Assembly: GCA_905178155.1 (NCBI GenBank)
Contig: CAJINV010000002.1
Coordinates: 8,203,224 to 8,267,223, forward strand
Length of the DNA stretch: 64,000 nt
Source: Amoebophrya sp. A120
Taxonomy: Eukaryota; Protista; Dinoflagellata
Direction: 5' to 3'
Under the pieces are notes generated by a model. The model was not told where the DNA came from, ran no database searches, and saw only the letters and a program-made list of their open reading frames with translations. The stretch's first letter is position 1. Each line of letters starts with the position of its first letter. This document shows, in pieces, positions 662 to 30,100 of the stretch. Both the position numbers and the translations under genes were made by a program.

Positions 662-3600
662 ATGCCGAAAATCGCCCTCACCCGCGAGGACGGTCTGAAT
701 GACCAACTCGAGCAGGCCGTTCGAGCGCACTACATGAAGCACGTGTCGGTGTTCGATGACCACATTTCGTATGAGGAGCTCCCGGGTGTCGAGCAGATCA
801 AGGGCCCGGACTTCCAGCGGCTGGCCCGGCTCTGGGATAAGGAAGAGTTCGACTGCTGCTGCCTGCTTGGGACGGAAGCGGCCAAGATCTACGTGGACCA
901 GTGCAAGCACTTCGACTACGCGAAGTTGGTGTGCGTGGGCAAGGGCACACTGGAAGTCTTGCAGAAGGAGAGGAGGAGCAGCAACGTGGTGACGCTGCCG
1001 GACAAGGCCACCGCCGACGGCACCGGGTTAGCGGACCACTTGCCCCTGGCAGTCGGCACCCGCCTGCTGCTGCTCTGTTCGGTGCAGCAGAAAGACGAAT
1101 GTACTTCTTATTCTTGAAGATGTGACGAGGTCCGATAGTTGCTTCGGAATATTATTCGGAGGACGAGCGCTATCTAGAGAGATCACTTTGTACTTCAGGG
1201 TGAGGAAGTGCAGCTTTTTGTTGATGCTGAATAACATAGAAAGGTGCCGTTCTACTTCGCAATCATTTGTTTACATCGTGAACAAGTAGAAGAGTTTACA
1301 CACACTACAGGCAAATCCACTTTAGAGCAGCGGGGTTTCGAGACCACGGTGTTTCAGGTGTATTCCACCCATATCAAATGCAAAAGTGTCTGGGTCTGGA
1401 AGAATAATGCTGTTTTTGCATGACACAGAAGGTCTGGCATGGAAGCTCCAGCATCACAGGTTTGGAGAAGCGTTCACAATGCCGAATCCGCATGACAAAC
1501 CCCTGACTTTTGTGACAGAAAGCGGGCAACTTTTGCTGCCTATGCATGAGAGATTTTTCTGTGTTCTGAAATGCGCATCACAAGTTTGCACTCTTCCAGA
1601 CCCAGACATTTTTGCATTTGATAACCCAGCCCCGCACGGAGCCCCCGACGACCTTCGACTTTTCGAAAGTGGACATCTGGACCTTCGGCAGCGCCTCGGC
1701 CGTGAAGGGCGTCGCGCAATGGAAGACGGCCAACGTGAAGGTCGCGATTTGCGTGAACCTGACCACCGCGAAAACGGCACAACAGCTGCTGCCCGCGAAA
1801 CTGGAGGACGGCAGCGAACTGAAGATCGAGTGTGCGGACAAATCCGGTGTGAAATCCTGGGCCGCGAAGGTGGTGGACTTCCTGAAAAATGGGCCGAGCA
1901 AAGAACAGAAGGACTTCGCGGCCGAGAAGGACAAAGAAGCAGCAGACCACCACCTCCCGGCGAAGAGTAGCGGAGCAGCGACGAGTAAAGCAAGCGCAAC
2001 GACGCCGAACAAAGAGAAGAAGGATATGGCATTCTCAAACATTTGTGTTGAATCATCGCTGTATTTTTACGCAGAATCTGAATCACTCTTCACTTCTAAC
2101 ACGAGGACCCTCCACACGATCCAACTGCTTCTATGCATGACAAGTTCTTGACGCGCTAGAGTAGAGCATGGAACGAATCCGCAATCTCAATCTGTAAAGC
2201 AAGACGCGCAATCGCAAAAATAAAAACCCTTTCACGACCTACTATTTTGCCGTGCGGTGCTTGCAATACAAAATCATGTGCCCTATGGGTCGCGTTTGTG
2301 GTTTCGGTCGGTTTAGCATTACAAAATCATGTAACAGCGATCAACGTAATTTTTGAGAACGTCATCAGCGATGTTCTACTCGCGGGAACAAGCTCCTCCT
2401 CCTCTTCGAGGCCGGGGACCGCGGGAGCCAGGGGGTATGAACTGCAAAAATATCGTACCCGTATAAATGCATTACAAATTTCCTCAGCGTGAGAACTGGA
2501 ATTTGTCATGCTTTTTTACTTTAAGGCCAAGATTTGTAATGCATAAAAGCAATTAGTACGAGTGCGATACTTTTGCAATTCATAGGGGTAGTCCCGGGAC
2601 GAAACGCGGGCAGTACGAGGACCCGCTGGCCGCGTTTTTGGCGTCGACCGGCAGTGGATCCTCAGCTTCGAAATCGAAGGCGGCATCTGCGGAGAAGAAA
2701 GTAGATCCCCTGGGGAACTTGACCTTCGGCGGCGAGAGCGCGTCCGCGAAGAAGAAATTGGTAAGCGCTGATCATGGCGCCGCTGCGACAGGAGCTGGCG
2801 TGGCGGAAGCAAAGCCGGCGACAACGAGTACTTCTACGCCCGGAGCAGGAAATAAAGCTACGGCTGCACTAGAAAGCGGCGCTCCTGAGATAACTTCTGC
2901 CGCAGCAAAAATACAAGACTCCACAACCGTGGGACTATCCACCGCTGGCGGAGAGGACATAAGCAGTAAAAAGCCATCGCTGGGGGCGGAAAAGCAGGCC
3001 ATTCCGGAAAAGCCGCCGGAGCAATCAGTTGCGGGGCAATTAGCCCAATCTTCTGGTGCAGCGGCTTCATCTTCACAACAGTTCTCCTTTTTCTTTCCTA
3101 CGGGTCCGAAGGCTGCAGCGCCCGTCGCAGCGGTGCCGGAGCAGATCGTGGAGGAAGCCATCGTGGATGACCGCAGTCGGGCAAGCACCAAGGAGCCTGC
3201 CGTGGAAGGTGGCAGAGGTGGAATCGCTGGGGGAACCACACCGGCGAAGGCAAAAAGCAAGGCGAAAGCTCCTGGCACGGCAGCGAGCTCCAGTACTGCA
3301 GCCGGACGAGCTGTTGCATCATCATCTTCGAGACCAGCTTCCGCGTCAACAAGGCCTTCCAGCAGTTCTGCGTCGAATCACGCCAGGAACCTCCAAACTG
3401 CGAACAAACAAGCAGGGGCGGCCAAGGCAAAGGCAGCGAGCACTACTCCACCTGCGTACAAGATGATTTCGAGCGAAACGATATCCTGAGTAAAAACGTC
3501 CCCACACCATAGTCAAGATGGGGATTTTGCAACGCAAACCTAGGAGTTTTGGGAGTCACGCATGACAAGTTTCAGTCCGTAAGGTAGTGCAAGTTAGCAA

Positions 3601-5299
3601 GGAAAGCCGCATCACAAATCGACCTGCTGATCCTGTTCACAGCATCACAAATTCCAAAACACGACTGGAAATGGTTCTCATGGGGATGCGCATCACAAAT
3701 GTCTTTGTCATTGCAAATCTGCATTACAACTCTGGTGTGGGTACGTTTTTACACAGGATAAACGAGCAGGACGGCAAACGTGAAAGACAAGTCGATAGCA
3801 GACCTGGCAGCCGGGAAAAACAAAGCTGCAACTACGTCGTCTTCCATATGGCGTTCTCAAGCGTTCCATTCTCAACTGTTACATGAATTTGTGATGCAAG
3901 AATAGGAGAAGCAAAAGAAGGGAGCTTGCACCTCTCGCATTACAAATTTGGCACAGATTTTAGTGCTGTTTAGCCCTTCTAAAATTTGTCATGCGAAGTA
4001 GCTTCATCGTATGGATGCTGATGCGCATTTTGCATGACAAATCATGTAACAGTTGAGAGTGTAACGTTTGAGAGCTCCATATTCCACCTCCGCGAAAGCC
4101 AGCCGGCCGCTCACTCCGGCCTCCGGGAAAGGAGCAAGAACGCGCGCGGCGCCATCGGCGACCGCTGCTAGCGGCTCCACCGGTGCTGGAAAAGCATCTT
4201 CGAGTGCAACTAGTACGGGCACAAGGAGTGCTGCCGGAGCGGGCGGCTCCGGGGCGGATCTGGGAGGAGGTTTGCCCCTACTACTGTTGTTGCAGAATAG
4301 AGAAATTAGAATTACGAAATGCGAAACCGAATTTCATGTACCTGTAGAAGTATGGTGATGGTGGCGTGCTGAGATGCAGATGCTATCTTTCTTTGAGTAA
4401 ACCTACCTACCTGTTATCAACACTATAAACTTATGAAAAATCGACACTTCCCCAGCTCAACAACATCACGCTGGAGCTGGAGGACCCGGTCACTCCGGTC
4501 CGACGTGGCAGGAAGTGAACCAGCTCTGGGAGGTGATTGGTAAATGGGAGTCGAGTTTTTCCGACCTCAAGAAGCTGCACGAAACGGAGGTTGGGGATTT
4601 GAAAAAGCAGCTGCAGCTTGCGTTGAGCGGCGACGGAGACTTTTTGGGTAGGAACATGAACGGCGACGAGCTCGGCAGCCCCAGTCGCGTGGACCGAGGT
4701 GGGCGGCTGCTAGAGAAAAGCGGCGCGGCTTTCGGAGCGTCCGTGCTGGACCAAAAGGCCGACGATGTGCTGGTGTCGAGCTCGTTTGCCACGTTGGACG
4801 CCGCGATATGAGAGTGCACATCTCTCCCTTTCCCTCATGTGTGACGCAACGCGCCAAACTCTTTTAAGCCTGTCTCTGCATGACAATTTCAGGAGGGCCA
4901 AACACAAACTGCACTCCAGTCCAGGCCTGGATTTGTCATGCAGAGGCTGCAGCATTTCCATGTGGATTTGCATTTTCGTTTTCCAGGCGCTATGTAAAAA
5001 TGGTAGAAATTATGCCCCCTCAAATGGGAGAGAGGGGAAGTTTGCTTCCATACGCGAAGGACGAGTACCAAAAACTTCGCCGGGAGTACGAGGAGTTCAG
5101 GAAAGCGAAGTTCGTGGAAATCGAGTTGCTGCACAACAAACTCGCGACCGGAGGTGGAGGCGTGGGTGGGATTGCTGGTACTAGTGCAACTACATCTTTG
5201 ATACCCACACAGCACGCGGCCGAAGTCGCGCAACTCCGAGCGGAAAACGCGCAGTTGGTGAAACAGGTAGAGTACTTCACACTCTATGCGACGGTCTGA
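662..5299 (+). CDS. hemD: Uroporphyrinogen-III synthase (HemD) domain plus a long low-complexity/coiled-coil tail; multi-exon, about 926 aa if it ends at 5299
   Basis: Motifs: IALTREDGLN, VCVGKGT, PDKATA, TLEQRGFETTVFQVYST, FGSASAV. Inferred exons: 662-1100, 1311-1371, 1629-2024, 2372-2435, 2590-3481, 3766-3846, 4087-4269, 4456-4806, 4986-5299. They total 2781 nt and join in frame. GT-AG introns at 1101-1310 and 4270-4455; the other six are TIR elements. The 3' end is uncertain (possible donor at 5267). Confidence 0.8.
1372..1623. mobile_element. Introner-like TIR element, family A (reverse orientation)
   Basis: 32-bp TIR tatcaaatgcaaaagtgtctgggtctggaaga / tcttccagacccagacatttttgcatttgata. 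TSD ACCCA at 1367-1371 and 1624-1628. Removal gives VYSTQPRTE in frame. Confidence 0.95.
2025..2366. mobile_element. Degenerate introner-like element, family B-like
   Basis: Ends tatggcattctcaaa ... tttgagaacgtcatc. Decayed TSD AAGGA/AGCGA. Internal gcatgacaag and gcattacaaa. Removal gives KKDVLLAG in frame. Confidence 0.7.
2436..2584. mobile_element. Introner-like TIR element, family C
   Basis: TIR tatgaactgcaaaaatatcgtacccgta / tacgagtgcgatacttttgcaattcata. TSD GGGGG/GGGGT. Removal gives ARGSPGTK in frame. Confidence 0.9.
3482..3760. mobile_element. Introner-like TIR element, family D
   Basis: TIR tatcctgagtaaaaacgtccccacacca / tggtgtgggtacgtttttacacaggata. TSD AACGA at 3477-3481 and 3761-3765. 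Removal gives SETSRTAN in frame. Confidence 0.95.
3847..4081. mobile_element. Introner-like TIR element, family B (235 bp)
   Basis: About 40-bp TIR tatggcgttctcaa...ctcaactgttacatga / tcatgtaacagttgag...ttgagagctccata. TSD TTCCA. Removal gives TSSSTSAK. Same length as, and similar to, 29403-29637. Confidence 0.95.
4807..4980. mobile_element. Strongly decayed introner-like element
   Basis: Starts tatgagagtgcacatc with a weak partner gatttgcattttcgtt. Internal tgcatgacaat ... atttgtcatgca. Removing 4807-4985 gives DAARRYVK in frame. TSD is no longer recognisable. Confidence 0.55.
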
Positions 5300-6047
5300 G
5301 AAACAAAGGCAGGAAAGAACGCGGAGAAGAACAAGGTGCCGCAGCGATGAGTAGTGGCTCTCGAAAGTCGTGCTGTCCTCTCTTCTTGTCTCCTCCACGC
5401 GTTGCTGTCTTTCGCGGTACATTATCATTGCGATGCACTCCTCATCGCTGCTCGAAAACTCATACACAGCGCTGAATAAAGCAACAAAAGCAAAAGAAAT
5501 GCCGGAGAGGTTTTGATACCTCTTTGGTCCGATGCTTTGCAACGCAGTAAGAGTTCGCTCTTGACATACAAAAATTTCTGATCACATAATTCATAACCGG
5601 AGCTGTTCTGAAGAAGGTGGAGCCAAGAACGTCGCAACGAGCTACATTCGGTCCTCCTACTAGTTCAGGAGAAGTTATTGTCAGTCGTTCGATTAACTGG
5701 TCAATCGCATGCTACCTTGCACAATACCAATACCACTTCGGTGTTTTTTATCGTGTTCGTATGGAGCAGAATCTGCAAGTCGCAAGTCGTTGATGCCCAA
5801 AATGCCACGAGACGCTAAAAGAAGCTCGTGACTTTGTGATTTTGACCCGACCAGGATCCATTCGGAAGTGATGGCAGAACGTATAAGTCTTACGTTGTAA
5901 CCGTGAAAAATTCTTGCCGCTTATTTTCGTGAGCCTCCGAAATTCCTTGTTATTTCCGGGTCATTCATAGAAAAACAGAAAGACAAAGAAAATAAACGAC
6001 AACCCAAACGACTCCAGACCCGGAAAAACTTTCGCTACTTATCTATC

Positions 6048-7898: not shown

Positions 7899-8357
7899 TA
7901 CAGGATCATGCGAGGAGCGTGGCTCCGGAAAAATTGCTTCGTTTCGACGAGGACCAAGGCATCTGCCTTTGTACTTAAGTATGTGTATGCCTCGTTGATG
8001 AGGTGCAAAAAATTCAGGATGATAAAAAGGCTTGCACTTCCAGTGATGTGTTCCACCAACGTTTTCCAAGTTCATACCTATGAACAGGCTTATTATTGCC
8101 TCCTGATCTTTGATCCGGATCCTGGCTGTGGCTGAGAGATCGATTTGTTTCTCCGAATTGATATTCTTCCGTTTGTGAGAGAGAGCGCAAAACCGGCTGC
8201 AACGCTCAGCGTCAGCCCGACAGAGGATCGTCCCGAGAGGCTCAACGCAGCACCATAGAGCCGCAGTTTTTCTTTCTGTTTCGCTAGCTACTTGAACAGA
8301 TTATGTTTCCACCTAGTATCCCGCAGAAGTCAAGAACAGCGTCGTGAGTGTCGAATT

Positions 8358-12120: not shown

Positions 12121-12464
12121 TGTTAGAAACCTAGACGCACGATAGTAACAACAGAGGTAAACGAGATGGGAACAAGCACTAGCAGTACTAAGTGACTACG
12201 AGTCACTGTGTGTTTGCTATCTGTTATCGACGCACTAGTATGGGTACTAGTCGCAACCTGCAGGGGTGTGATGAGATATCAAGAGGATGGACAATATGCA
12301 TGACAAACAGGATGGCTACGGCTAAGGAGGAGGATCATGGATTTCAGATCGCCGGTCTGTACAAGACCAAGAGATTTGACATCAGACCAGATTTACATCG
12401 TGATTTGCATCGCGCTGTGTTTCTGATCGTCACTAGGTCATTTGGTATTCCGATCTATCCAACA
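12121..12464 (-). repeat. 3' LTR (344 bp)
   Basis: tgttagaaac...tatccaaca, a direct repeat of 17627-17970. Confidence 0.95.
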
Positions 12465-15400
12465 CGATGGCAAATTGGACAAACTGCTGTCCCCGACCCG
12501 GCGAACCCCGCAATCTGCTTGGGAGGGTATTCTAAGCCGATTTCTCGAGTTGCTTTCAAGTAGGCCAAAATCCGTTTTGCTGCTTTCACCGCTTGGGGTG
12601 TCGGATTTACTACTTCTCTCGCAACACGCTGCACCGCGTAGACAATGTCTACCCTGCACATACAAGCGATATATTGCAGGCTACCCACGAGGCTTCGCAG
12701 TGGGAAACTCGTTTCTGGTGCAGAAGTATCAACTTCAGTAGTCTGAATTTCTGGCAATTGTCTTCCAGGAAGTACAGGCGTAGCAACTCCCCGACAATCA
12801 ACCATATTGAATTTCTTCAAAACTCTGTCAATGGCCTCTGCCATGTGGATCCTCATGGTCTTTTTCGATGCGTTGTATTCCAGAGTGGCCCCCAGGAGGT
12901 CGTAGACTTCGCAACCCTTTTCACCTGGTTTCGCTTTCGGCGGGATCACTTTTCCAGGAAATTTGTCCAAAATTTTCCCCATCTCTTTGCCGAGAATTTC
13001 TTCCGTGTCACCACTCATGACACAGTCATCCACGTACACGCTCAACGTAAGAACGCCTTTACGGAACAACCCCGGCTCCCGTTCACACATCTTCCAACCT
13101 AGTTCCTCCAAAGTCTTCCTGTAGGTATCGAACCAACGACGCGGGCTAATTCGAAGACCATAAAGAGACTTCAGTAGGCGCACGACATCACCTCTCGGAT
13201 CAGTGCTCCAGTGCTTCGGAAGACGCACGAAAACTCGCTCGTCACCTAAACTCGCACAAATGAACGCATTTGAAATGTCGAAAAATTTGATCCGTTTTCC
13301 ATTTGCAGCAGCGTCAACAAGTAGGGCTCTACTAGCTGCGTGCGAAATGGTAGGACTGTAAATTTCGCCACAGAGTTCTTTCGACTGTAAGTTTCCCAGT
13401 GCCACCAGCCGCGCTTTGTATGTTCCACATCTTTTCTTCGTGTAGATCACGCACGACGGCACAACTTCGTCGCCTTTTTGTGGTTTCTCGTCTACTGTCC
13501 AGCACTCTTTTGCTAAAAGTCTGAGTCGTTCAACATCGTCGGCCTCTATGTACTTCGGAGCATCAGGATCTCGAAGAATCTGCGCTCTGGTGAGTGACAC
13601 CACATGAGCAAAAACTTCTTCACCTTCTTCCTCAATGCGCTTGGCATGGTACTCGTCCAAGTCTCGACCAAAGTCAAAATCATCAGGCAACTGAAATACG
13701 TTTCCAGCTTCTGCTGCTTTTGGCTTAGGACCTGGCTTTTTGCTTCCCGGTTTGTTCTTTGAACCTTTCGGGCGACCCTTTTTGTTGTTGACAACGACTG
13801 CAGGCTTCGGCTTTTGCTTTCTTTTCTTCTTGACGACCTTGGGCTTTGGGCGGGCGGGAGGTTCGTCAAGCTCTTCCGCTTCGGGAGTAACTACCTCTTC
13901 CTCTGCTTGCGCAGCACTTTCCTCTTTGCCCCCTTCCACTGCTTTGCCCCCTTCCTCGACCTGCTGGTCTCCAGTAGCCCCATTGGGCCCCGAATCACCC
14001 TGGTCACGCGGAGCATCCTGATCGGGCTCATGACTTCCCGAGGGAGCCACCAACGGATCAGGCATGTTCGACGCACACAATTTGTCGGGTGCGGCAAAGG
14101 GTACAAAGGTGCCACGGTTCTTTTCGCGAAGATCGTCAATGTCGGCGATCGTACAAGATTCGTCAAACTTGCAGGATCTATTTTCGATCACAGTGAACTT
14201 CAACCCAACTTTCGTTCGTTTGTCGTCACGCCAAACACCCACTAAATAACAGGAATTTTTCGAATACCCCAAGAATACTCCACGTTCGTACCGAACATCG
14301 AGCGCACCTAAGTCCGTCGATTTCGTAACGTGTTTCCGAGCATAGCAAAGGACTCCGAATTTCTTGAAATATTTGAGCGAAGGCGCGCGATCGTGAACTT
14401 TTTCAAATGGACTCTTTTGCTCTTTCCGGGCTAACCGATTCCAAGTCCAGGCTATATACTTTGAACAATATGGCCAAAGACGAGGATCAACCCCGATCAT
14501 ATTCGCCCGCAAGGCATTTTTCGAAGTTTGGTTCCACCGTTCCACGACTCCATTACGTTGCGGCGTGAACGGCGCAGACGTAGTTGGCTCGATCGGAGGA
14601 CTCTGCTTCAAGCAAGACTTTCTCCAGTCACTTTTCTCGCCTCGAAAAGTAGGATCGTTATCGCTTCTCACCCGTTTGGGCTTTCCAACTTCTAAACACC
14701 ACTCACGCAGACCTTTCCACGCTTCATCCTTTTCCCGGTGAGGATAATTCTCTACCCAGCCATGGAATGTCTCCACCCCTGACAAAAGAAATTTCTCCCC
14801 ATCAAGACCCAAAGGATAACCGTAGGTATGATCCCAATCCACTTGATCTAGCCAAGCCTTTGGCTTACAGTGCTCCGGACGTTCTGACTTACACCCTTCT
14901 TGCCTCGACTTCGCTAAGTCACACAACGGACAGCGTCCATATTCAAGACCGTCAATATGAAAGTGCCCAAACCTTTCATGTTGTCGAAGACGATCGGCAC
15001 GAGTCAGATTCACAAATGCTGGCTCGGACCACGCGGCCCGGCTCTTTCCGTTTTGTAAATCGCCAGCCGTATCCAGCTCGCTCAAGCTGTGAAACGCAAA
15101 GTCTATTTGCGGCAAATTTGTTAAAGTGTCCCGGCGCATCGGAATTTTGAAACCTGTTTTCTTCTTTTGGAGGTAGAGCGCGTCTCTCCCCTCAAAAACT
15201 ACCCGGCAGTCATTTTCGTCGTTCAAAAGACTTACCGACACCAAAAACAACTTTTCGTCAGGATGGTATAGACCACCCATTAAACCTAAAGAGTTATGTT
15301 GGAAGTAACCACGGTAGGCGGGAGTGTCTAACGTTCGGTCGGCAACCGTTAACGTTACTGGATCATCCCAAAACACAATCTGAAAACAACTCAAGTCCCC

Positions 15401-16306
15401 TGTCATGTGGTGCGAGGCACCACTTTCAACAACTGCCGTTGTTTGAGTACCATCCGGGCGGATGGTAATCCCATGGGCGCTTTTCCCGTTTCCCTTCGAC
15501 AAAAGTGCAAATGTCAAAGACGAAACAGCGCCGGCGGACTTTTCGCCGTTTTGATCTGTTTGACCCTTTTCCCGCTCTTTTGACCAATCACCAAACCAGT
15601 CTTGTGCCTCCTGGTTTTCGTTTTTCTTGTCCCTGCCCTGGTGGTGACCATGCACCAAGACAGTGAAGCCCTTAGGAGTATCGGCAAAATCAAAAATTTG
15701 CTGATCTTTCACCCCGTTGCATGATTCCCCTACAAACTTGCACAAGTTAAAATAAGTCCAATCCATGCAGTTTCCTTCTGCTTTACGGGCGGAATCTGCC
15801 ACCTCGTAACTTTTGTTCTTTGCCATCTCATGCGGGTTCGCTTTTCTTTTTAAATTGCTGAGATCATACAAGCGCGAAACCCCATGCAGAATAGGCATTC
15901 TTTGTAATGAATTTTCGTTCTTTTCAGGTACTTTCACGTTCTTAACAGGAGCGGAATCAACTTCAAATTTTACATTGGAAATCTTACAAGTAGTGCCGGT
16001 TGATTCGTAAACAGGGCGGATAGATGCGTTTTTCATCATACATTTCGATACGTTTTCGTTGGAAATAGAGGCTGTTTCAAGTACACTGTGATTGGATATA
16101 GGTGCTGTTTCAAGACCATCAATTTTTGTTTCGAGTACTGTAGCATTGTAAATAGAGGGAGATTGTAGATTTTGAATGCATGTAACGTCACTACTTTGAC
16201 CAGAAGTAGAGCCTGTTTTAACAACATGAACATCATCAGCATCGGTTTTTCGACGTTTAGCAGCATGAGAAATTTGACAATTCTCATCGGAACCCGGCCA
16301 GCTTCG
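12455..16306 (-). CDS. pol: Copia pol (protease, integrase, RT), truncated before RNase H
   Basis: Protease VESGASHHM. Zn-binding HERFGH..CPLC. Integrase RSDN..PQRNGVVER. RT YKARLVALG, FDISNAF, LKSLYGL, YVDD, AAKRILAYLK. The frame is open from 16306 (translated by hand). Confidence 0.9.
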   Translation of the reverse strand, partial: RSWPGSDENCQISHAAKRRKTDADDVHVVKTGSTSGQSSDVTCIQNLQSPSIYNATVLETKIDGLETAPISNHSVLETASISNENVSKCMMKNASIRPVYESTGTTCKISNVKFEVDSAPVKNVKVPEKNENSLQRMPILHGVSRLYDLSNLKRKANPHEMAKNKSYEVADSARKAEGNCMDWTYFNLCKFVGESCNGVKDQQIFDFADTPKGFTVLVHGHHQGRDKKNENQEAQDWFGDWSKEREKGQTDQNGEKSAGAVSSLTFALLSKGNGKSAHGITIRPDGTQTTAVVESGASHHMTGDLSCFQIVFWDDPVTLTVADRTLDTPAYRGYFQHNSLGLMGGLYHPDEKLFLVSVSLLNDENDCRVVFEGRDALYLQKKKTGFKIPMRRDTLTNLPQIDFAFHSLSELDTAGDLQNGKSRAAWSEPAFVNLTRADRLRQHERFGHFHIDGLEYGRCPLCDLAKSRQEGCKSERPEHCKPKAWLDQVDWDHTYGYPLGLDGEKFLLSGVETFHGWVENYPHREKDEAWKGLREWCLEVGKPKRVRSDNDPTFRGEKSDWRKSCLKQSPPIEPTTSAPFTPQRNGVVERWNQTSKNALRANMIGVDPRLWPYCSKYIAWTWNRLARKEQKSPFEKVHDRAPSLKYFKKFGVLCYARKHVTKSTDLGALDVRYERGVFLGYSKNSCYLVGVWRDDKRTKVGLKFTVIENRSCKFDESCTIADIDDLREKNRGTFVPFAAPDKLCASNMPDPLVAPSGSHEPDQDAPRDQGDSGPNGATGDQQVEEGGKAVEGGKEESAAQAEEEVVTPEAEELDEPPARPKPKVVKKKRKQKPKPAVVVNNKKGRPKGSKNKPGSKKPGPKPKAAEAGNVFQLPDDFDFGRDLDEYHAKRIEEEGEEVFAHVVSLTRAQILRDPDAPKYIEADDVERLRLLAKECWTVDEKPQKGDEVVPSCVIYTKKRCGTYKARLVALGNLQSKELCGEIYSPTISHAASRALLVDAAANGKRIKFFDISNAFICASLGDERVFVRLPKHWSTDPRGDVVRLLKSLYGLRISPRRWFDTYRKTLEELGWKMCEREPGLFRKGVLTLSVYVDDCVMSGDTEEILGKEMGKILDKFPGKVIPPKAKPGEKGCEVYDLLGATLEYNASKKTMRIHMAEAIDRVLKKFNMVDCRGVATPVLPGRQLPEIQTTEVDTSAPETSFPLRSLVGSLQYIACMCRVDIVYAVQRVAREVVNPTPQAVKAAKRILAYLKATREIGLEYPPKQIAGFAGSGTAVCPICHRVG

Positions 16307-17389
16307 TCAGTTGGGACAATCCTTACGAACATGTCCAAGCTGCTTGCACTTGTGACGTTTGATCTTGGATTTGTCTCCGCCGCCGCCTTTTCCCTTCTGC
16401 TGGTCTCCCTTGCCTCCTTTTCCGCCGCCCTTGTTGTTCTTCTGGTTGTTGTTCTTGTACGGGTGCTGGTTCTTGTTGACCCAGCGGCCACCCTTCTTCC
16501 CCTTCTGTGCAACAACTTCAGCAGCGATCGCTTTGTGATCGGCCTGCGTCAAGTTGAGAGAAGCGGGCTTTGCGGTGTCCTCTTCGGTGCCCCCGTCTTT
16601 CAAGACGGATTCGTACTCCTCCGCCAACTTCAACAAATTATCATTGTCCGGCTTGTCCTGGATGACGTGCGGCATGATAAATGAATCGTAGGCGTTCCCG
16701 AGGTTGTAGAAGCATCCGAAAGTCATCAACTCGCTGCGGAAGACTTCACCGCCCAGCTCATCCCGAAAGATGTTTTGTTTCCGCTGAACGAACTCCCTTA
16801 CCGTTTGGTCTTTGTCTTTCCGGGTGGTTAGTAAATCCTTAAGCGACCGCATTCGAGCGAATTTGGTCCGCTTATCGAATTCCAACAACAACGCACCCCA
16901 AGCCGTACTGATGCAAACGACTGTCTTTTTCTTCACGACCTCCAGCGCGTCCCCAGTCAACGCCACGCACAAGCGAGCGAAGAACTGCGCACCGATGGCC
17001 CTCGTGTCGTCCTTCCATCCGTCAATAGAAGGCGTTTTCAAGAAGTTGTCGATCAGTGTCAAGATCCCCAACATCTGCAACAAGGCTTGCACCTTAAACC
17101 GCCAGTCCGACCATCCCTTCGGATTTCCGTCGTAAGGCGGAATAGAGTACTTTCCCACCTGGTTAGTGTCGACCATTGTGTTCAAAAGAAAACAATAATC
17201 GCGCTTAAATACAAATTCCCAATTTGTATCCCAATCGAGATTGTGGAAATAGTTTGCAAATTGTGGGTCGCTAAGGTCTTCAACGTTCCAACCTTTGGAG
17301 CCGTAACACTTCGCGCCTAAAATGCACAAGTCTCGACGCTTTCCAAGTTCTCTAGCTACGCAACTAGCACCAAAATGTCTGCGTGACAT
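16307..17389 (-). CDS. gag: Copia gag (probable start at 17176) with a C-terminal zinc knuckle
   Basis: YDGNPKGWSDWRFKVQALL at the N-terminus. Knuckle RHKCKQLGHVRKDC, with the first Cys replaced by Arg. Confidence 0.85.
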   Translation of the reverse strand: MSRRHFGASCVARELGKRRDLCILGAKCYGSKGWNVEDLSDPQFANYFHNLDWDTNWEFVFKRDYCFLLNTMVDTNQVGKYSIPPYDGNPKGWSDWRFKVQALLQMLGILTLIDNFLKTPSIDGWKDDTRAIGAQFFARLCVALTGDALEVVKKKTVVCISTAWGALLLEFDKRTKFARMRSLKDLLTTRKDKDQTVREFVQRKQNIFRDELGGEVFRSELMTFGCFYNLGNAYDSFIMPHVIQDKPDNDNLLKLAEEYESVLKDGGTEEDTAKPASLNLTQADHKAIAAEVVAQKGKKGGRWVNKNQHPYKNNNQKNNKGGGKGGKGDQQKGKGGGGDKSKIKRHKCKQLGHVRKDCPN

Positions 17390-17626
17390 TTAATTTCTTT
17401 TCTAAATTTTGCAGATAAACTTCTTAAAGTTGTGGGGGTGCGTTTTCAACAAATACGTTCAAATTTGTAATGCTAACTCTGAAATTGTACAAGTAAATCT
17501 TACAAGATGTAGTGGCTGTTTTTCAAATTTTCTACACAAGAAAATCAGTAAAAATTTGTAATGCAGGCGCAAGTTTTCTAAACAAGAAAACTAATAAATT
17601 TTGGCTGAATAAAGGTGCGACTAGAT

Positions 17627-17970
17627 TGTTAGAAACCTAGACGCACGATAGTAACAACAGAGGTAAACGAGATGGGAACAAGCACTAGCAGTACTAAGTG
17701 ACTACGAGTCACTGTGTGTTTACTATCTGTTATCGACGCACTAGTATGGGTACTAGTCGCAACCTGCAGGGGTGTGATGAGATATCAAGAGGATGGACAA
17801 TATGCATGACAAACAGGATGGCTACGGCTAAGGAGGAGGATCATGGATTTCAGATCGCCGGTCTGTACAAGACCAAGAGATTTGACATCAGACCAGATTT
17901 ACATCGTGATTTGCATCGCGCTGTGTTTCTGATCGTCACTAGGTCATTTGGTATTCCGATCTATCCAACA
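17627..17970 (-). repeat. 5' LTR (344 bp)
   Basis: Direct repeat of 12121-12464, followed by the TSD CGATG. Confidence 0.95.
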
Positions 17971-20900
17971 CGATGGCAAATTGGACAAACTGCTGTCCCC
18001 GACCCGGCGAACCCCGCAATCTGCTTGGGAGGGTGCTCCTGACAAGGCTAAGAGTGAGACCGGAAAACGTGTTCTTTTTGAGGATGAACAGATCAGCTGG
18101 GTTGAGGAACTCGACCGTCTGACTGATCCCGACAACCGGATGCCCGAAGGGAACGGTTGGACACCACAGCTCAGCAACTTTGTCAAGCAGCTCTTTCTCC
18201 ATTTGGTGAAAGACGTCGACATGAGCGACAGCGTAAAGCTGAAATTTCTCGATCGTAATTCAGAATTGCAGCGTACAATCGGGGAAGAAGGCGTCCTCAA
18301 CTCTTGGACAGTTCTCCGAGGAAAAGGACCCAGCTGCGAGAAGGTCGGCGCATGGGAGGAATTCCGCAGCGCTCTAGCAGAAGAGCTAGAGCTCCTGGAT
18401 ATTCCTCGGCGCTTGAGCAACGAGCCGCGAGACGAGAAGGCACGCGATAAGATGAACAAGGCACGCGACGAGATCAGTAAGGACATTTGGCACGTCAGGA
18501 CGGCCGTTATGAAACTTCACGCCGGGCCGCAGCCGGGACAGAAGAGCGAGCGAAAATTAAGTTATGCTCCCACAGCAGCGCGTCAAGGCACTGAAATCCA
18601 GAACCTGACTGCGCAGATCAGAGACGCACTTACCTACCTCGCTGATGCGCGCCAGAAGCTTGAAGACCACGTCAAGTTGTTAGTTCAGCTTCTGGGCCGC
18701 GATGGAGAGAAAGAGAGACGCGCACACCTGCAGTATGCGATGCAGAATGTTGAGAACGAACTCAAGGGTCTAGATACGATAGCAGAAGAAAAATTCCGCG
18801 CACCAAAAGGCAGTTTTCTCGCCTACGCGGAGACGCAATTCACGCGAAACAAACTGGATCCGGTGAGCCAGGTTCTCGAGGAGTGGTTGGAGCAGCACTT
18901 GAATGCCACGCTGGAGGCTCTTCTGAAGTTGACCGACGTGATCGACAATAGCGATACCGCGGAACGCTTCGTCCCCTTCACAAACACGTTGCTTGCACCG
19001 TGGGCGCCAGCAGCGCGGGTCGTTCATCCGGGACGTGCCGAGGGGCATCATGCCGAAGCGCCGAAATCGCAAATGACGTTGACGCGGAAGCCACAAGGTG
19101 CCGACGGGTTCTTTCCCAAGCTCGAACGCACCCAAGCGGTGCATTGGCCATCAGGCTCTGCTCCTGGCGCAGCAGACATGCAACGCAGAGATGCCACAAG
19201 GCGCAGTTCTTCGAGGGAGCGCAGCTCCTCGAGGAAGCGCAGCTCTTCGCCGGTTCTTCCGTGATCGCTCCCGCCAGGATTACTGAGCTGCAACATGCAC
19301 TCGTGTATAATAGCGGCCTCGCACTACGACCGACTTCGCGAATGCTGTAGAGATTGGTTCCATCTCTGATTTATTTTTTCAGTAGCCTGTTTTATTTGGT
19401 TTGACTTTGATTTTTTACCTTTCAGGGCACTTGCTTCAATTTATTACTTATATTGATCCCATTTGCTATTGCTTGTACGCCCGAGCCCGATGCACTAGCA
19501 ATGTGAGGCAAGATTTATTGCAAGAGGAGAAGAAAGTGAAAGGGAGGAGCGTCTGCCGTGGCTTTGGTCTTTGCAAAGACCACTAGCAGGCGCGAAAACG
19601 AGCGAGTGCGAACCAGAATGATTTCTGCACGGACTGCGGTGTTTGGTACCTACGCGTATACTTTTAGATACCGAATCGAAGTTCGTCTCGTCCCACTCGA
19701 TGCGGGACCCCAAGCTTATTTTCACCAGCCGAGTCGGAAATTAGAATTACCTTTTTTTACCACCCTAGCTCAACATGGGCAACAAAACGAGACCAGCGCG
19801 CTTACACTCAGCATTCATCAATTTTACGCACAGATGATCTATTCAACATCAACCTTTTTACGCGATTTTGTTCTGCGAATTATAATTATTGCCCCGGGAA
19901 ATAAAATCGTTGATGGACTCCACAACGTTCTTTTTTCTGCCAAGAATTGAGCTGATGAAGCGCTTTTTTCTTTGGACAAACTCACATATTCGCTTTGATG
20001 TTGTGCACGAGTAGTAAGAAAGTAATCGCGACCTGGAAACGCAAAAACCCCTAAAGAACTCTGTGGTCGTGCACCGGGCCGCTACAATCTATCTTCACAG
20101 CGTGCCGGTGATTTGGCGTTTTGGTAAAAGTGTGCCCACTTTAAGTTACTCACTTTTTTTGCCCGAGAAAACAGTACCCACCCGAAACTGTAACACCTGA
20201 AAACTCATGATCATAGATATCCGTCCAAGACCTCCGAGGAAAACCGCTTTTGCTTTGCAAGGACGGTATATTTCTCGGAAAAAAAACCAAAAAAACTTTT
20301 CTAGCAAGTAAGGAACCAACTCGAGGTTCTGCCTCCCCTTAAAACCAGACTTCGACGGATGAAAATGAAAGCGAGAAAGTCGCTGTTTCTGCGGTTTGGC
20401 TTCGACTTCGAGGAGTCCCGGACGAGTGGAGGTGTTCTACAATATACTTCACATGCCCAAGATTGTTCAACCTAAAAGAAAAACGCACAAGATCAACATC
20501 GGTCAGCAACACCAACGTCATCTCTCGAGGTCGGAACAAGCAATGGAGTGCAAGAAGAAAATTGTGTTGCAATGACGAGCAAGATCTAGTCGTTCTGGAG
20601 ATGGCAAAATGCTGCGAATATGTATACGGTCCGTGTGCTCCCTAGTTGTGTGAGCAGCCCTGGTTTGTACGGACCTTGAGACTGTTGACCAGTAAACAGT
20701 GGGTACAGAAAATTGAATAAATGTTTTCTATAGGAGAGCTATACGATGCTCCCGTCGATGATAAATTCCATAGTGGATGGATGCACCAGGACTACTTACT
20801 TACGGCGCTAGTGCCAGCAGATCTTTGTTGACGAGAACGACGCCTAGCTGTGGCGGCTGCTAAGATGAGAAATTGGCGTCTTATTATTTTCGCCAGAAGA

Positions 20901-22466: not shown

Positions 22467-25023
22467 ATGGATATTGATGATGCTGTGGGGTGGGAGCACT
22501 ACAAAGACGGAAAGTTCTGGCACCATGCGGTGGCGGGAGCGTCGGCTGGGGTGTGCGAGCACCTCATCATGTACCCCTTTGACACCATCAAGGTACTTTA
22601 GTACTTCGTTTATCTTTATAGAGCTACTTCTAGTCGTTGTCGTATGATATCAGCTTCAACGGCGTGTAAAAGATGACAAAAGAGAACACAAGCTTCCGAT
22701 TCGTGCCCGTGCCTCCTCCCAGAAATGTTTTGTGTTACCGACTGTCCCTGAAAGCTTGTAATTTCATTGTGTGCACAGAAACATTTACGGCACGAGGATG
22801 ATGTACGGAACGCAAGTGTAGTTTCATTCATAATCACAACAGACGAACCTTCAAGCGGAGCGACCAAAGCAATTTTCCTCTCCTTCGGGAGGAGGACCTC
22901 CGGGAGGACCGCCAGGATCATCCTGTGCCGCCGCCTGCCCGACTAAAATAAACCCTGGCACCAGCTCCTGCACATCAGCAACGAAAGCAGGGGCGGCGAC
23001 TTCCAGCAGCGCATCCTCGTCGTGTGCACCAGCAGCGGGGACCTCGTCCGCGTCAACGGCCAGCAGCCGAGTGAACTTCAATGCAACTACTACAGGAGCA
23101 GCAGGTAGTGGCGCAGCAGCGACTGCGCCGTCGTCCACGCTCTCTAGCACCATAACCCGCGGGAACTGCTCGCCCTTCATGACCAGTCTTCAGCAGCGCA
23201 CGGCGACCACAGGAATTATTCCCACCACCGCGGTCGCGAGCTCCAGCACCGCGGGAGGTACAAGAACAGGAGCTGCTCTTGGTGCCAACCCCGGGTCCCG
23301 GTCGGTGTACAGTAACACGTTTGCCGCGTTTCGCGCGATCAAGAATGAGGCCGGCTGGAGCGGCTTCTACCGCGGCGTGTCGGCGATGGCGCTGGGCTGC
23401 GTACCGGCGCACATCGGCTACTTCTGCGCCTACGAGACAGTCAAGGGCTTTGGGAGGAGTAGCAACAGTTCTAGGGACCAGACGAACAACGCAAGGAATT
23501 ACAGCAGCGCGGATAAAGATAACCCGGGTGGACATAAAGACCAACATCTTCCAAACGGCCAGAACAATAGTGCAAGTTCCTCTTCCCCCTACTCCCCCAC
23601 CGCATTTTTGGCCAGTAACCCCTGGCTGATTGGCATGGGCGCGGGCTGCGCCGCGAGCTTCGCGCACGATCTGATCCTAACCCCGCTCGACGTCGCGAAG
23701 CAGCGGATGCAGCTGCGGGCGGGGAGCCACACCCGGTCCTGCGCGGAGTGCGTGAAGCACGTCGTGAAGACCGAGGGCTATCTGGCGCTGTATCGGTCTT
23801 TCCCTGTCACGCTGTTCAGCAACGTCCCTTTTTCCGCCATTCTCGTAGGGTGCAACGAGCAGCTGAAGGAGCAGTTCGACGTGAACACCACCTGCCAGAT
23901 ATCACAAGGAAAAATCCCCCCTCCCCATATCAAACGGAAGTTTCTGATGCTGGATTTGCGTATACAAATCAGGTTTGTCTTGCAGTAGAGGACTGCAGGC
24001 CCCTGCCAAGCCTGAGTAGAGAGGTTTTGGCCTAGGCGCTTAGCATGAGAAACGTCTATGCTGTAGGCCCCACAGCATCACAAACCGCCTGCATAATGCG
24101 GCAGAGCCTGCGGAGTTGTCTTCTTGCAAGACAGACGTGATTTGTGGTGTCAAATCAGCAAGACAAATTTTCGGAAACATACCTTTTCGATATGGGGAGC
24201 GGGGATCTTTCCTCTCAATACCAGACGTGGGACGAGATGCAAACCAAACTGCCCATGTACTTTACGCTCGCCGGCGTCAGCAGCGGCGTGGCCGCCGTGT
24301 GCACCCAGCCCCTGGACGTGATAAAAACCAGGATCCAAACGCAAACCTGCCTGTTGAACAAAACCTCGGTAAGGTACCACGGCATCATCGACGCGGCGCG
24401 GACCATCTACGCGGAAGAGGGACTCAGGGCGTTCTTCAGGGTACAGTGTTACTTGCCTGCTTAAATACTACTTACACGATTTGAAAGCGTAGGAGTTCTG
24501 TTTAGCGTCGTCAGCACTTGACGTTTTCCTTGCGCATTTCTATGTGTCGTGTGTGCGTATTTGCAAGATAAAAGCGTATGAATAGTATATCGAAATAAAG
24601 ATAAAATCCTATTCTGAATTGTGAATGACAATGATTTGAAGATGTTTCTGAACCAAAACAGGGCTCCGCCGCTCGGGCGCTGGTCGTGATTCCCAGCTGC
24701 GCGATTTCATGGGCGAGTTACGAAACCATCAAGAGTTTTCTATCAAATATAAAAATGTCTGGGTCTGGAAGATTGCAACTTGTGATGCTGCGTCTGCATT
24801 ATGCAAAAATCTGTATTGCATGAACAGCAAAAGAGGTCTTTGGCCCCGGCGAGAGGGCATTTCTCATGCGGTATAGGCATCAGAAAGCCCTCACAAGATC
24901 TGTGATGCTAGGGCATGCATCGCAGACATCAGGAGTCATGCAAAATGTGCATGACAAACCTTGCATCCTTCCAGACCCAGACATTTTTACATTTGATACT
25001 TTCTCGTCCGCAACGACTTCTAA
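22467..25023 (+). CDS. Mitochondrial carrier, mitoferrin (Mrs3/4-like)
   Basis: Motifs: AGASAGVCEHLIMYPFDTIK, GCVPAHIGYF, AHDLILTPLDVAKQRMQL, QPLDVIKTRIQTQ, IPSCAISWASYE. Exons 22467-22592, 22843-23899, 24226-24440, 24662-24740, 25004-25023 (2 GT-AG introns and 2 TIR elements). Confidence 0.9.
23900..24220. mobile_element. Introner-like TIR element, family E
   Basis: TIR tatcacaaggaaaaatcccccctccccatatc / gatatggggagcggggatctttcctctcaata. TSD CCAGA. Removal gives TTCQTWDE. Confidence 0.92.
24741..24998. mobile_element. Introner-like TIR element, family A
   Basis: TIR tatcaaatataaaaatgtctgggtctggaag / cttccagacccagacatttttacatttgata. TSD TTTTC/CTTTC. Removal gives IKSFLVRNDF*. Confidence 0.93.
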
Positions 25024-27133
25024 CACGAAAGTAGCCGCTTGTTGCAGCAGCAGCTCCTGCCGGGCAGTTCTTCTTCGCATCTTGTTCTTCGCTCAGACCA
25101 TTTAATGCTCTTGTACTGCTAGCCGGTAGTACCCCCAGGCCCAATTCTTCTGCGGGCAATATTGTTCCTCTCGTTCTCTACAGCGCCGTTCACGACTTGG
25201 GACGGTAGTGGGTACCAGTAGGCTATTCACAATCTTCACGCCGATTGCGCACATAATTGAGAGTAAACCACACGGCACGAAGATGAAGCACAGCGACAAG
25301 AGGAAATCTACAAAAGAAGACTTCTATCCAGCCCTGTTCTTCCTCGACCGGGTCCGCCGGCAATTATATCGGAGATTACCGTATGTCCAAGTGCTGTAAC
25401 CACAAGAATCAGACCCGGCGTTGGCGAAGAGACGATCATCTTGATGTGTGATGAGTTTTTCATGATTGTAAACAAAAGTAGAATTAAGGATAGCGATAAG
25501 GACCACAAGAAGCACTGACATAGAAGACACACAAGTGTAGATGACTGCCGCGGGACCGTCGACTCCATTGACTGACATGACACGTTGACGTTGATGTCTT
25601 ATCGCCACATAGGACATTGCATTGTCATATCGACACGGGCTGCTTTTCCAAGTTTGAACTTCAAATCGACTTTGTTGTTGAGCATTTGAAGACCACGACG
25701 ATGTACTATAGATAGCATACTAAAGAGGCGAGTCCACTTTTCCCTGCTTCATTTGGAGGAACTATTTACTTTCGGGATTCCGGTTGTAAGAAGAACCAGA
25801 ACGCGAACACTTCATTCTCGGAGTTTGCACTGCACACTCACTTGTTGTGGCAAATTCTCTTGATCATGATACCCGGAAGTCAGAGTCAACATCATCTTTC
25901 AGCAAGAACTCTATACAGATACATTACGCAGCAACAGCATCAGAATTAGAAGTTACGTAAATTACAGCAGCTAAAAAGAGGAAAGAGCTTTAGCAGTGAA
26001 TCAGCAGCAACAGCAACAGCAGCAGATACTATCAGCATACCAGTGCGACGCGAAGACTACAAGAGCGACCGTAGTGGCGTGTAGCTCATCTTGTCGCTAG
26101 GATTAAGTCAGTTTGGAAATACCAGTACGGTTTTCCATTCGGATAGCTTCATGGTCCAGTTGTAAGAGGACAATTTGAAGAACCCCAGCCATCTAGGGTG
26201 TATCAGCGAGCGACTTCATTGTAGCGATCGAAGATTTATTCATTTTCAGCATAATGCCCCCGTTGACGACGTCCCATGCAATTTATTACGCGCGCAGAAT
26301 GCCATGGGACGAAGACGAACATCACGAACGTTTTAAACTACACCAATGCAAATAAGAAACAAAGATGCAATTGTTATTGTCGAAAACGAGAGGCAAAGGG
26401 CGGCAACTGAGTGATACGTTGCCCGCTTTTGCGAAGCGATAGCGAACTTCAGGCAGATTTCGTGTTGTTCGGATGGCATGAATATTATATTGATTAGGAT
26501 TTGATAAGAGTCCTGCAAGTAGTATGTGCAGGACGTGAGCGATGAACAAGTTCAAGTTTTTATGTGCAGATGTCGGTCTCCTGATCGTACTTATTCTATA
26601 GCTCCGTGGGTGGGAGGAGCCAGTTGGAGTATTTGATATCCCGGCTCAACCAGCCCCCGTGTGCGGTTTCGCATGCCCCCAAACGTACTTTAGATGAATG
26701 TGTTAAATTGCAGAGATTCTCAGCTGTTTTCACCGTCAGCGCTGTTGGATCTGTCCCCTCAATCAATGCAGCTGCACCACATAGCAAATTTCTCCCTTCG
26801 CAAGCCCCCAAGAAGTCAAGTAGTCGCACTACCATGATATCTCTTTCTCAGTCGTCATCTTCGCACGCGATGGTCTGTTTTTCCGTTGCAACAGCCATGA
26901 CGCGGTTACTTATCCTTACGCGCACTTGATTCTTGAAGTCAAGATAAAAAAGTTGTCTCGTGTTTGCCAAAAAATGAAAGCATTTCTTTGATTGATATCA
27001 GAGCTAAAAGCTGCGTTGTAGCTGCACTCATATTTATCTTTCTTGCGTGATGAACTCTTTTTTTTTCGGAACAGCATGATGTATATAATACCTTTGGATT
27101 ATACGTAATAGATCTTCGTTCTTGTCTCTCAAG

Positions 27134-30100
27134 ATGTTCCACCAGCCCGGCGCCCCACACTATGCGTCTTCGCCCCCCTTGGCGATCGAGCGTCTGTCCG
27201 GAAACCCGATTTTGGTTCGCTGCGCTCCACCGACGACCGCAGCTGTGCCAGAAGCAACCGCAAGTATCAATCCGTCCCAAAATGCCGACGCTGCCTACGA
27301 GTGTTTGAGTCCGGTGGAGCACCGGGTGAGGGCGGAGGAAGCGGCGGCAGACACGACCATTTCGGCGTCGCACCTGCAGAACCTGCAATCCATTACGCAG
27401 GAAAATTTCAGCAACTTCACGTTCGAGCCTGAGCAGCGGTTTCTGCCCAGTACTAGTTTTGGAACTACGGGAGGTTTTGAAAATTATGGTAGTGCCGACA
27501 ACTACTATGAAGGGCAGCTGGCGAACAACACCGTTTTCCTCGAGGAGCCCAACTCGTCCTCCCCGTCGGGTTCTACTTCCCGAACAGGCGTTACCACCAT
27601 CCGCAGATTGCGTCGCCGGCTCCGGGCGTTCCTCGCGAAGCAGGAGGCGTTTCGGCCGGTCCCAGACAAGGTTCTGGTGCTGATCCATGCACCCAAGGGG
27701 TTCGGCGGGGCGGGGAGTGGCCCGGAAGAGGACAGTTACATGGACGACAATTACTACCCGGAGGACGAGAACAACTTCAACGAGGACGACTTCGACGAGG
27801 ACATGCCCGATGCCTGCGATTCCAACGACCTTTCGCGCGAACAGTCCTCGCGCGCGGTCGACTTCCGAGCGATGTTTGGCCTCGGCGGAGAACAAGAAGA
27901 CCCGGCGGCTATTAACAACAAAAATGGCGCAGCAAGTGCAGGTCAAAAGCAAAACCAAAGCCACCGCGGGGGTGGTTCTACGTTTGTCTACGATCCGACG
28001 CCCCTGGGTTTCGACAACCAGACGACCAATGCGCGAGCAGTCGGAGCAGGACACGTGCATGGACAACCACCAATGAACCGAGTTCCACACCATAATCGGG
28101 GACCACAGCACCAAATACCCCCTTCGCAGCCCGGTCTTGGCCAGCCGCCGCAGTTACGGATGCGGGTTATTCCAAGGCAATACCACCAAGAGGTCTTTGC
28201 GAAAACGGCTATTTTGCTGGAGAACACGCAGCATATCGAGATCAACGTCATCAATAAAAAGTTTCTGTTTCCCAATTCCTTCGACCTTGTTTACGACACC
28301 AAGGAAGATGTTGTGTGGCTCACGGAAGAACAGGACGGGGACAGTTCACATCAGGACGACGCGCAGAATAAAGTTGATGATCGTGATCCTCAGGACCAGA
28401 CGGGCGAAGGTGCAGCTGTTGCCGAAGGCAAAGCAATAAATCCAGAACCTATCAAGGAACTTCCCATCCACGAGCTGCAGCTGGTTCTCCGGTCTTTTCC
28501 GGATCTGCACGTAAGAAAAATCTATCAAATGTAAAAATGTCTGGGTCTGGAAGAATCCAACTTGTCATGCTGATTTTGGATTGTAAAAAAATCTGTATTG
28601 CTTGAGCAGCAAAGAGAGTCCAAGTCTTGCTACAAGGAAAGAGCATTTGTCATGCGGTATAGGCATCAGGAAGCCCTCACAAAATCTGTGATGCTAGGGC
28701 ATGCATCACAGACATCAGGAGCCACGCAAAATGTGCATGACAAACCTGGCAATCTTCCAGACCCAGACATTTTTACATTTGATAAAATGGTCGAGCAGAT
28801 GAAGGACGTGATCGATATTGGTGGCAGACTGCAGTTACCAAGTGCAAATATGTCTGGGTCTGGAAAAATTGGAATCTGTATTGCCTGTCTTGCACTCCTA
28901 TAAAATCTGTATTGCGTGACCGACAAAAGCGCGAATTCTTCGTCATGCAAAAACGCTGTTTCTCATGCGCATTACACATGAGGAAGCGTCCTGATTTTTT
29001 GTCATGCTTGGCTGCTCCCAGGAGTATGCTCAGTCATCGCCACTTAGCATCACAAGTTTCCATACCCAAACATATTTGCATTTGATAGCAGTTGATCCGG
29101 CGAAAGTCGCATTCTGTCGCCGACTGGGAGTCGGCCATTTACCAAGCCAGCTTGGAGGAGTTGAACAGTGGTGAGTGGGTGATGCAAAATTTGGCGCACC
29201 TCGTTTCCCCCTCCTCTACCTCCGGGATGCTGGATAATTCTAGCGGTGCTGGTAAGGAAGTCGAACAGGAGCCAGACCGCGAGCGTAGCAGCGACGCTGC
29301 GCAGCCTTTCACGGACGCGCGGATCGTCCGTCTGGAGCAGAACAAGTCGGACGATCAGCACGGGCGGTTTCTGTCCTGCAACCCGAACCCGAAGTACCTG
29401 AATATGGCGTTCTCAACTGTTACATTCTCAACTGTTACATGAATTTGTGATGCAAGAAGAGCGAAAGTAAAAGGGCGGACCTTGCAACTCTAGCATCACA
29501 AGTTTTGCACAGATTTCCATCCTGTTTAGCCCTTCGGAGATTTGTCATGCGCAGCCGCTTGGTCGTGTGGTTGCTTATGGCAATTTTGCATGACAAATCA
29601 TGTAACAGTTGAGAATGTAACATTTGAGAACGCCATACTGAAGGGGCATTTTCCGAGCAATAAATCCGCGCTGCAGAACCACCCGATCTACAACGCAAAC
29701 ATGAACGCGACCTACATCAAGTCTCTGCAGGACCAGCAGAACAACAAGGAGCCGTCCTTGCTGATGGTGTTGCTGGACCTGATTTTCCGGTTGTACCAAA
29801 AGTACCACGCCGAGCCCATCACGGAGGAGTGGCGCGTGGCGCTGGACCGCCACATTGTGGAGTGCCAGTGCGTGATTCTGCTGTTGCTCGACACGCCCAT
29901 GTTTAAGGACCTGGGTTGTAATACCTCAAACAACCGAAACGGCGGGGCGGGAACAGCAACAGGGTCGTCGAACAACCAGAGGCCGGCCGCTCCGAAGACC
30001 GAGTCGCCACTGCACGAGCTCTTGCGTATGTACTACCTTTTCTCCCGGAGTACGAGCAACTTCCCCGGGTCTGAAAAGTACCGGAGTTTGCGGTATTTCG

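Follow-up and report, generated by a model that had tools for sequence, protein, structure and literature searches.

The introners of the dinoflagellate Amoebophrya sp. A120 were described by Farhat et al. 2021 (PMC7789003) as beginning with TAT, seven variable bases and at least three A, with direct repeats of 3-5 nucleotides (nt) and a mean length of 240 nt. A hairpin was proposed for them, U1 was not found, and the mechanism of removal was left open. They have also been read as an adaptation of the spliceosome (PMC11282704), and diverse A120 introner families have been listed (PMC12130899). Here we show that in a 64,000-nt stretch of the A120 genome (GenBank assembly GCA_905178155.1, contig CAJINV010000002.1, positions 8,203,224 to 8,267,223; "the window" means this whole stretch) one family of such elements, family A, occurs in both orientations relative to the transcript, and that orientation independence extends to other families. 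The elements share with the A120 introners the organism, TAT-N7-AAA ends, the direct repeat, membership in a repeated family, and non-GT-AG introns supported by RNA (PMC7789003). They are therefore already known as the introners of Farhat et al. 2021. What is added to that description is orientation independence, the register of the cut within the duplication, and a 6.1-kb example.

In the main text of PMC7789003 and part of its supplementary text, "orientation" is said of genes only, and "excision" is absent from the main text. The pipeline of a 2022 study permitted opposite-orientation copies (PMC9860276). No report of orientation independence of these elements was found in the literature searched, and subscription papers and unseen supplementary figures may affect priority. 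For a canonical introner family, Huff et al. 2016 may already have reported both orientations.

Nonconventional introns of euglenids and diplonemids are similar in lacking a conserved GT-AG, in paired ends (for the A120 elements a prediction), in duplication-like repeats and in a probable origin from miniature inverted-repeat transposable elements (MITEs), and in having unknown machinery; they are reported to leave as circles, not lariats (PMC6221363, PMC11282704). Their junction is weakly pyrimidine-purine, and their positions +4 to +6 pair as CAG/CTG (same sources), whereas the A120 elements have TAT...ATA ends and a 5-bp duplication, and are least paired at +4 to +7. No orientation test for these introns was found in the literature searched. 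Introners with terminal inverted repeats (TIRs) and target-site duplications (TSDs) in Micromonas, Aureococcus, Symbiodiniaceae and Fritillaria also have a MITE-like origin and leave the mRNA unchanged by insertion. The spliceosomal ones carry or co-opt fixed splice dinucleotides (PMC9860276, PMC12130899), whereas the A120 elements have none fixed in any register. Internal eliminated sequences (IESs) of ciliates are likewise transposon-derived, precisely removed and bounded by TA-containing ends, and they are removed as DNA in the somatic nucleus at TA repeat boundaries (bioRxiv 10.64898/2026.07.09.736142). The A120 elements differ from them in having five random duplicated bases and no TA-containing direct repeat, and in being retained in a genomic-type sequencing run.

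Family A consists of elements of 250-270 bp with TAT...ATA ends, 30-bp TIRs and a 5-bp TSD. Its copies in the window and their host genes are:

662..5340, + strand: host gene 1, HemD-like N-terminal domain; 902 amino acids once two GT-AG introns and six elements are removed
1372..1623, - strand (reversed relative to A2-A4): A1, inside the HemD domain of gene 1 (+); ACCCA duplicated, 1367-1371 and 1624-1628
22834..25024, + strand: host gene 2, mitochondrial carrier (Pfam E 8.5e-27); start approximate; GT-AG intron 24441-24661
24741..24998, + strand: A2, near the 3' end of the mitochondrial carrier gene; duplication TTTTC/CTTTC
27134..32607, + strand: host gene 3, carrying A3, A4 and the element 29403-29637; long + frames joining into one open frame
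28523..28784, + strand: A3, in + gene 3; duplication AAATC/AAATG
28836..29087, + strand: A4, a fourth copy, beginning TAC, in the orientation of A2 and A3; duplication GCAGT

A4 had been missed in the preliminary description of this stretch, which was made from the letters alone and did not name the published class of elements. That description claimed that the reverse complement of A1 is colinear with the forward strands of A2 and A3. Its coordinates proved exact, and the alignments run over the full length at 69% identity (blastn E 2e-24 and 4e-22). Structures with TIRs and a duplication make up a catalogue of 13 rows for the window; three base-shuffled windows yielded 1, 0 and 1. Family A elements are partly self-complementary (A2 matches its own reverse complement at 68%), so orientation was scored on the interior, with 60 nt cut from each end. 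Scored against 300 shuffles each, the trimmed A1 interior matches that of A3 with z 9.2 in reverse and z 0.9 forward; for A1 and A2 the values are 7.7 and 2.4. The interior is polar, the motif TTTGT(C/G)ATGC being forward over most of its length and reversed near one end, and A1 is truly reversed relative to A2 and A3. The same motif is regularly spaced in the interiors of unrelated families too, and is a candidate binding site for a transposase or other protein.

That all three hosts are on the + strand, as first described, is borne out by the + GT-AG introns of gene 1, the Pfam match of gene 2, and the long + frames of gene 3, for which there is no Pfam match. The window host proteins are 100% identical to A120 entries. 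In gene 1 the Pfam match to HEM4 (E 0.0012) is under the curated cut-off; the first exon is 100% identical to a 902-amino-acid Amoebophrya sp. A120 entry, and the joined translation equals public entry P0001 exactly. Two orthologues, at 78% and 68% (3 matches among 355 candidates), are continuous across the A1 site, and the HemD part downstream of A1 remains conserved. If A1, A2 or A3 were retained, an in-frame stop would follow within 17 codons in all three host genes. Downstream of its HemD-like domain, gene 1 (662-5340) encodes a long tail of low complexity and a short C-terminal stretch that is conserved; the A25 orthologue has both as well.

Orientation was then counted over a wider set. 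An end-pattern scan of metagenomes gave at least 146 loci, all from one assembly, and all locus counts rest on these listed loci. Scan-locus copies are up to 95-97% identical to window copies, and the scanned assembly is therefore from the same or a close species; RNA is tied to the window only, and the scan loci are DNA. The listed loci and the window together hold 330 elements, 143 of them family A (4 in the window, 139 at the loci). Five copies longer than 300 nt were dropped, and element polarity is clear in 138/138. The host strand was called by a codon-phase model whose cross-validated calls were correct in 163 of 169 cases; above a margin of 8, 135 were correct and 0 wrong. Pfam matches at 8 of the 38 tested loci all fall on the called strand (8/8), and one call, L001:617, is at odds with both its neighbours. 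A strand call was obtained for 77 of the 138 family A copies, that of A2 being set by hand from RNA and Pfam.

Among these 77 copies, 42 lie as A2 and A3 and 35 as A1 (p = 0.49; 95% confidence interval 0.43-0.66), close to the even split that the preliminary description had set as a sign of symmetry. Reversed copies are not rare, and the one with RNA cover, A1, is removed exactly in three of four RNA-type runs (see below). The loci alone, at five rising margins, gave 47:46, 39:34, 22:21, 16:15 and 8:5. Neighbouring copies less than 1.5 kb apart, a comparison in which no strand call is used, face the same way in 11 cases and opposite ways in 13. The 31 closest family A pairs among those listed divide into 15 same and 16 opposite, and the top pair, 96% identical, is opposite. 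By subfamily, the A2/A3 cluster is split 24:16, or 16:7 when clustered more tightly, and the ratio in the A1 cluster is 3:7; the idea that A1 represents a subfamily fixed in reverse was rejected, since its cluster has 7 reversed copies and 3 forward. Stem strength is alike in the two orientations (27.1 vs 27.0 of 30 pairs). In other families, with 95 oriented elements, both orientations occur in 11 of 14 clusters, and 75 pairs face the same way against 55 opposite. Orientation independence is real, and it holds across families.

The RNA evidence comes from runs X3-X6, as contigs only, from two samples of one study. These runs are listed as guessed RNA, and were treated as spliced complementary DNA (cDNA) because GT-AG introns are absent from them. 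A1 is lost through a joint from 1366 to 1624 (257 nt, equal to A1 and one duplication) in 3/4 runs, X3 being without cover there. The strand of gene 1 is fixed by X6 contig 19, which in addition skips two GT-AG introns on +, 1101-1310 and 4270-4455. In the region 22500-32500 a genomic-type run filled the joint table, so contig-length arithmetic was used instead. In X6 contig 10 the stretch between 23894 and 25000 comes to 295 letters, against 295 predicted with A2 removed, and in X6 contig 13 that between 28516 and 29638 comes to 357, against 357 predicted with A3 and A4 removed; the predictions subtract 5 nt along with every element, and a single GT-AG intron of 221 nt. The RNA-proven family A copies are therefore one reversed (A1) and three forward (A2, A3, A4). 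Elements of other families with RNA cover, to which no strand is assigned, are:

2025..2366: last base mutated; duplication 3/5 (AAGGA/AGCGA); joint 2022 to 2370 (347 nt), 4/4 runs, exact
2436..2584: duplication GGGGG/GGGGT; joint 2429 to 2584, 3/4 runs; downstream fifth base kept
3482..3760: duplication AACGA; joint 3475 to 3760, 4/4 runs
3847..4081: duplication TTCCA; joint 3841 to 4082, 4/4 runs; family and orientation as 29403-29637
4807..5052: inverted repeat weak, its ends predicted to pair at about 0.3; joint 4801 to 5053, 3/4 runs, exact
23900..24220: duplication CCAGA; outer 7 bp predicted unpaired on the transcript strand; removal in X6 contig arithmetic
29403..29637: duplication CTGAA; removal in X6 contig arithmetic

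All of the RNA-covered elements (11/11) are absent from spliced contigs. The skipped form is the main contig, weak stems included, and one element-interior bin has zero depth in 4/4 runs. A GT/GC..AG pair in any of six registers was found in none of the 11 RNA-proven elements, and in 12 of the 179 oriented elements. One much longer element, also without an assigned strand, is skipped according to gene model and frame, not RNA:

54754..60907: 6154-bp element, TAT-N7-AAA ends, 51-bp perfect inverted repeat, duplication GAACA; interrupts a + reading frame

Its interior consists of 108/216-bp and 256-bp tandem arrays. Removal of the element and 5 nt leaves a 941-amino-acid open frame, and public gene model P0004 skips exactly that.

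A perfect 5-bp duplication flanks 125 of the 143 family A copies, as counted with a finder that favours good duplications; an anchored re-count gave 17 mismatches in 540 site pairs, and no letter of the duplication is fixed. Held across families are TAT (positions 1-3, of which 1-2 are imposed by the finder), G at 9 and AAA at 11-13, while positions 4-7 vary. Over the first 16 positions, base use at the 5' end is like that of the mirrored 3' end (181 oriented elements), and a short run of U is always present in the 3' arm, at -11 to -14. Many elements have left and right ends of differing type at positions 4-7 (e.g., L009:2814, L023:2805, L072:243), suggesting end swapping between families.

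Where the two duplications differ, the position of the cut can be read. In the four mismatched RNA-covered cases, A2 keeps upstream base 1, element 2025 keeps upstream bases 1-3, and element 2436 and A3 retain downstream base 5, the register of A2 and A3 being taken from contig-piece ends. A single cut position, just behind base 3 or base 4, fits all four. Codon effects at 33 mismatched duplications discriminated nothing, frame choice being unreliable (it was wrong for A2).

The introners are DNA transposons of non-autonomous type, inserted in genes either way round. They have the traits of MITEs: they are short and non-coding, with inverted repeats and a fixed-length duplication, and without target or orientation bias. 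Their removal is very probably an RNA-level process blind to orientation, whether by cleavage and ligation or by a modified spliceosome. Family A shows a polar interior without a needed splice signal: given the nearly even orientation, the exact removal of A1 and the absence of a GT-AG register, nothing polar is needed from the interior. On balance we favour removal from pre-mRNA through the symmetric ends, likely by a nuclease and a ligase outside the GT-AG chemistry of the spliceosome. The two arms would pair and bring the ends of the element together; a protein would read TAT-N7-AAA at each end, the sole pattern common to families; cleavage would fall behind base 3 or 4 in the upstream duplication and at the matching position downstream, and ligation of the exons would follow. 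The polar interior, in which TTTGT(C/G)ATGC recurs, likely serves transposition, not removal. The 6.1-kb element, wholly different in its interior and skipped likewise in the public gene model, supports this reading.

Several points weigh against cleavage and ligation in this form. The nuclease, the ligase and the excised RNA are all still putative, and A120 retains U2, U4, U5 and U6 and 83 of 89 spliceosomal proteins (PMC7789003). RNA proof exists for one reversed family A copy only, the others being DNA loci of one assembly whose removal is inferred from frames, and the RNA evidence is limited to contigs from a single study and its two samples. The arms are mismatched at positions 4-7 in 101, 84, 52 and 136 of 252 elements, and the terminal TAT is not better kept than positions 16-28 (5/324 vs 23/1404, p = 1). 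G-U and A-C arm mismatches number 133 and 139, so that no selection for RNA pairing was seen in what is a weak test on young elements. Elements 23900-24220 and 4807-5052, both exactly removed, are predicted to be weakly paired at their outer bases. Lastly, all four informative junctions fall within the longest shared stretch, and homology-guided joining therefore fits equally well.

The mismatches at positions 4-7 and the two weakly paired elements make a strict ruler at the stem base doubtful, and the ends look more like a short pattern read by a protein, with the stem helping. The claim of the preliminary description that the TIR stem and the TSD are read for removal has to be modified accordingly. 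The arms pair strongly in prediction in 9/11 RNA-proven elements. A perfect stem base is not needed (52-136 of 252 elements are mismatched at the positions concerned). Nor is an identical duplication, element 2025 being removed exactly with a duplication matching in three of five bases. Its wider claim, that only symmetric features are read, holds in so far as the interior contributes nothing polar, and goes too far in that a spliceosome reading the same 30-nt ends also fits.

Such a spliceosome, of a modified U2-type without U1, would read signals in the inverted repeats (5' TAT...AAAA and 3' UUUU...AUA) that are the same both ways. We consider this possible, if rather unlikely. The terminal 30 nt are identical in either orientation, so both orientations fit a spliceosome reading those ends too, and orientation symmetry is expected here as well. 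The constant U run at -11 to -14 of the 3' arm would suit it, most spliceosomal parts are present, U1 was not found, and a novel subunit was proposed by the authors (PMC7789003). TIR/TSD non-canonical introns of Fritillaria are, according to a review, removed by the spliceosome; these, by contrast, retain AG-AN ends (PMC11282704). The A120 families share no branch-like motif beyond TAT and AAA. A stronger argument than orientation for a non-spliceosomal route is that the first and last bases of the intron would lie within a duplication without fixed letters. Spliceosomal catalysis normally needs fixed terminal bases.

Excision from DNA similar to that of ciliate IESs, which had also been put forward in the preliminary description, would take place before transcription, by a transposase and microhomology repair, and now appears improbable. 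The end pattern does resemble a transposase footprint (1-3, 9 and 11-13 held, 4-7 variable), an asymmetry indicating RNA pairing is absent, and the junctions lie in the longest shared stretch. Run X1, however, is of genomic type, as its depth is uniform (42-52) and it keeps a GT-AG intron. At five elements its contigs continue from the unique flanking sequence into the element end, at depth 39-45 and unbroken at the duplication, and the presence of elements at single-copy depth disfavours excision from DNA; X1 is possibly the source of the window itself, and A1 lies outside the X1 comparison. Empty-site joints were not found among the 15 of 283 joints shown. In the RNA-type runs there are also element ends connected to other exons, and a single contig that lies within an element. 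To our knowledge, Amoebophrya has no separate germline and somatic nuclei. The IES route depends on these (bioRxiv 10.64898/2026.07.09.736142).

It is most improbable that the junctions are template switches of reverse transcriptase over a hairpin between short direct repeats: such switches mimic non-canonical splicing (PMC2923612), a hairpin with a direct repeat is the expected substrate and all the evidence is from cDNA-type contigs, but retention would stop the frame within 17 codons in three genes, the skipped form is the main contig even at weak stems with an interior bin at zero depth in every run, the hosts include RNA polymerase II Rpb1 (L059), and the HemD part beyond A1 is conserved.

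The remainder of the window holds other mobile elements:

41814-42119: introner at the 3' end of the Cox11 gene; duplication GAAAT; known from DNA only
about 12121-18030, - strand: Copia-type long terminal repeat (LTR) retrotransposon; identical LTRs of at least 300 bp; gag and pol frames split by one stop
36861-40142: likely non-LTR retrotransposon; open frame of 1093 amino acids that includes an RVT_1 reverse transcriptase domain

The Copia element was considered as an autonomous partner of the introners and rejected, since it has direct LTRs rather than TAT-N7-AAA ends. A transposase partner was also sought in the longest family A copies among the listed loci, L059:3292-4263 (972 bp), L038:2815-3445 (631 bp) and L037:571-1051 (481 bp); no open stretch longer than 118 amino acids was found in these copies of 481-972 bp. 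The L059 copy lies in the region of an RNA polymerase II Rpb1 gene. Viral contigs gave no match to the family A end pattern, and the window gave none to Rfam.

More than 60% of the introns of A120 are without GT-AG, and the 2021 study did not settle how they are removed. Orientation independence takes any needed signal in the polar interior out of consideration and narrows this question to about 30 bases per end. The elements also provide a test set, comprising near-identical opposite copies, duplications whose mismatches locate the cut, and elements that are very long or pair weakly. A second, non-spliceosomal mRNA splicing system, with a TAT-N7-AAA protein possibly derived from a transposase and serving tens of thousands of introns, is a tentative candidate in A120, with odds we put at a little under even. 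If it exists, the protein would recognise the two strands of the RNA stem much as a transposase does DNA ends, cleave inside the duplication and join the exons. Neither the orientation of an element nor its interior or its length, from 150 bp to 6 kb, would matter, and a whole transposon superfamily would have been made harmless inside genes. If cleavage and ligation is true, A120 would have a genome-wide alternative to the spliceosome, in parallel to the unsolved introns of euglenids.

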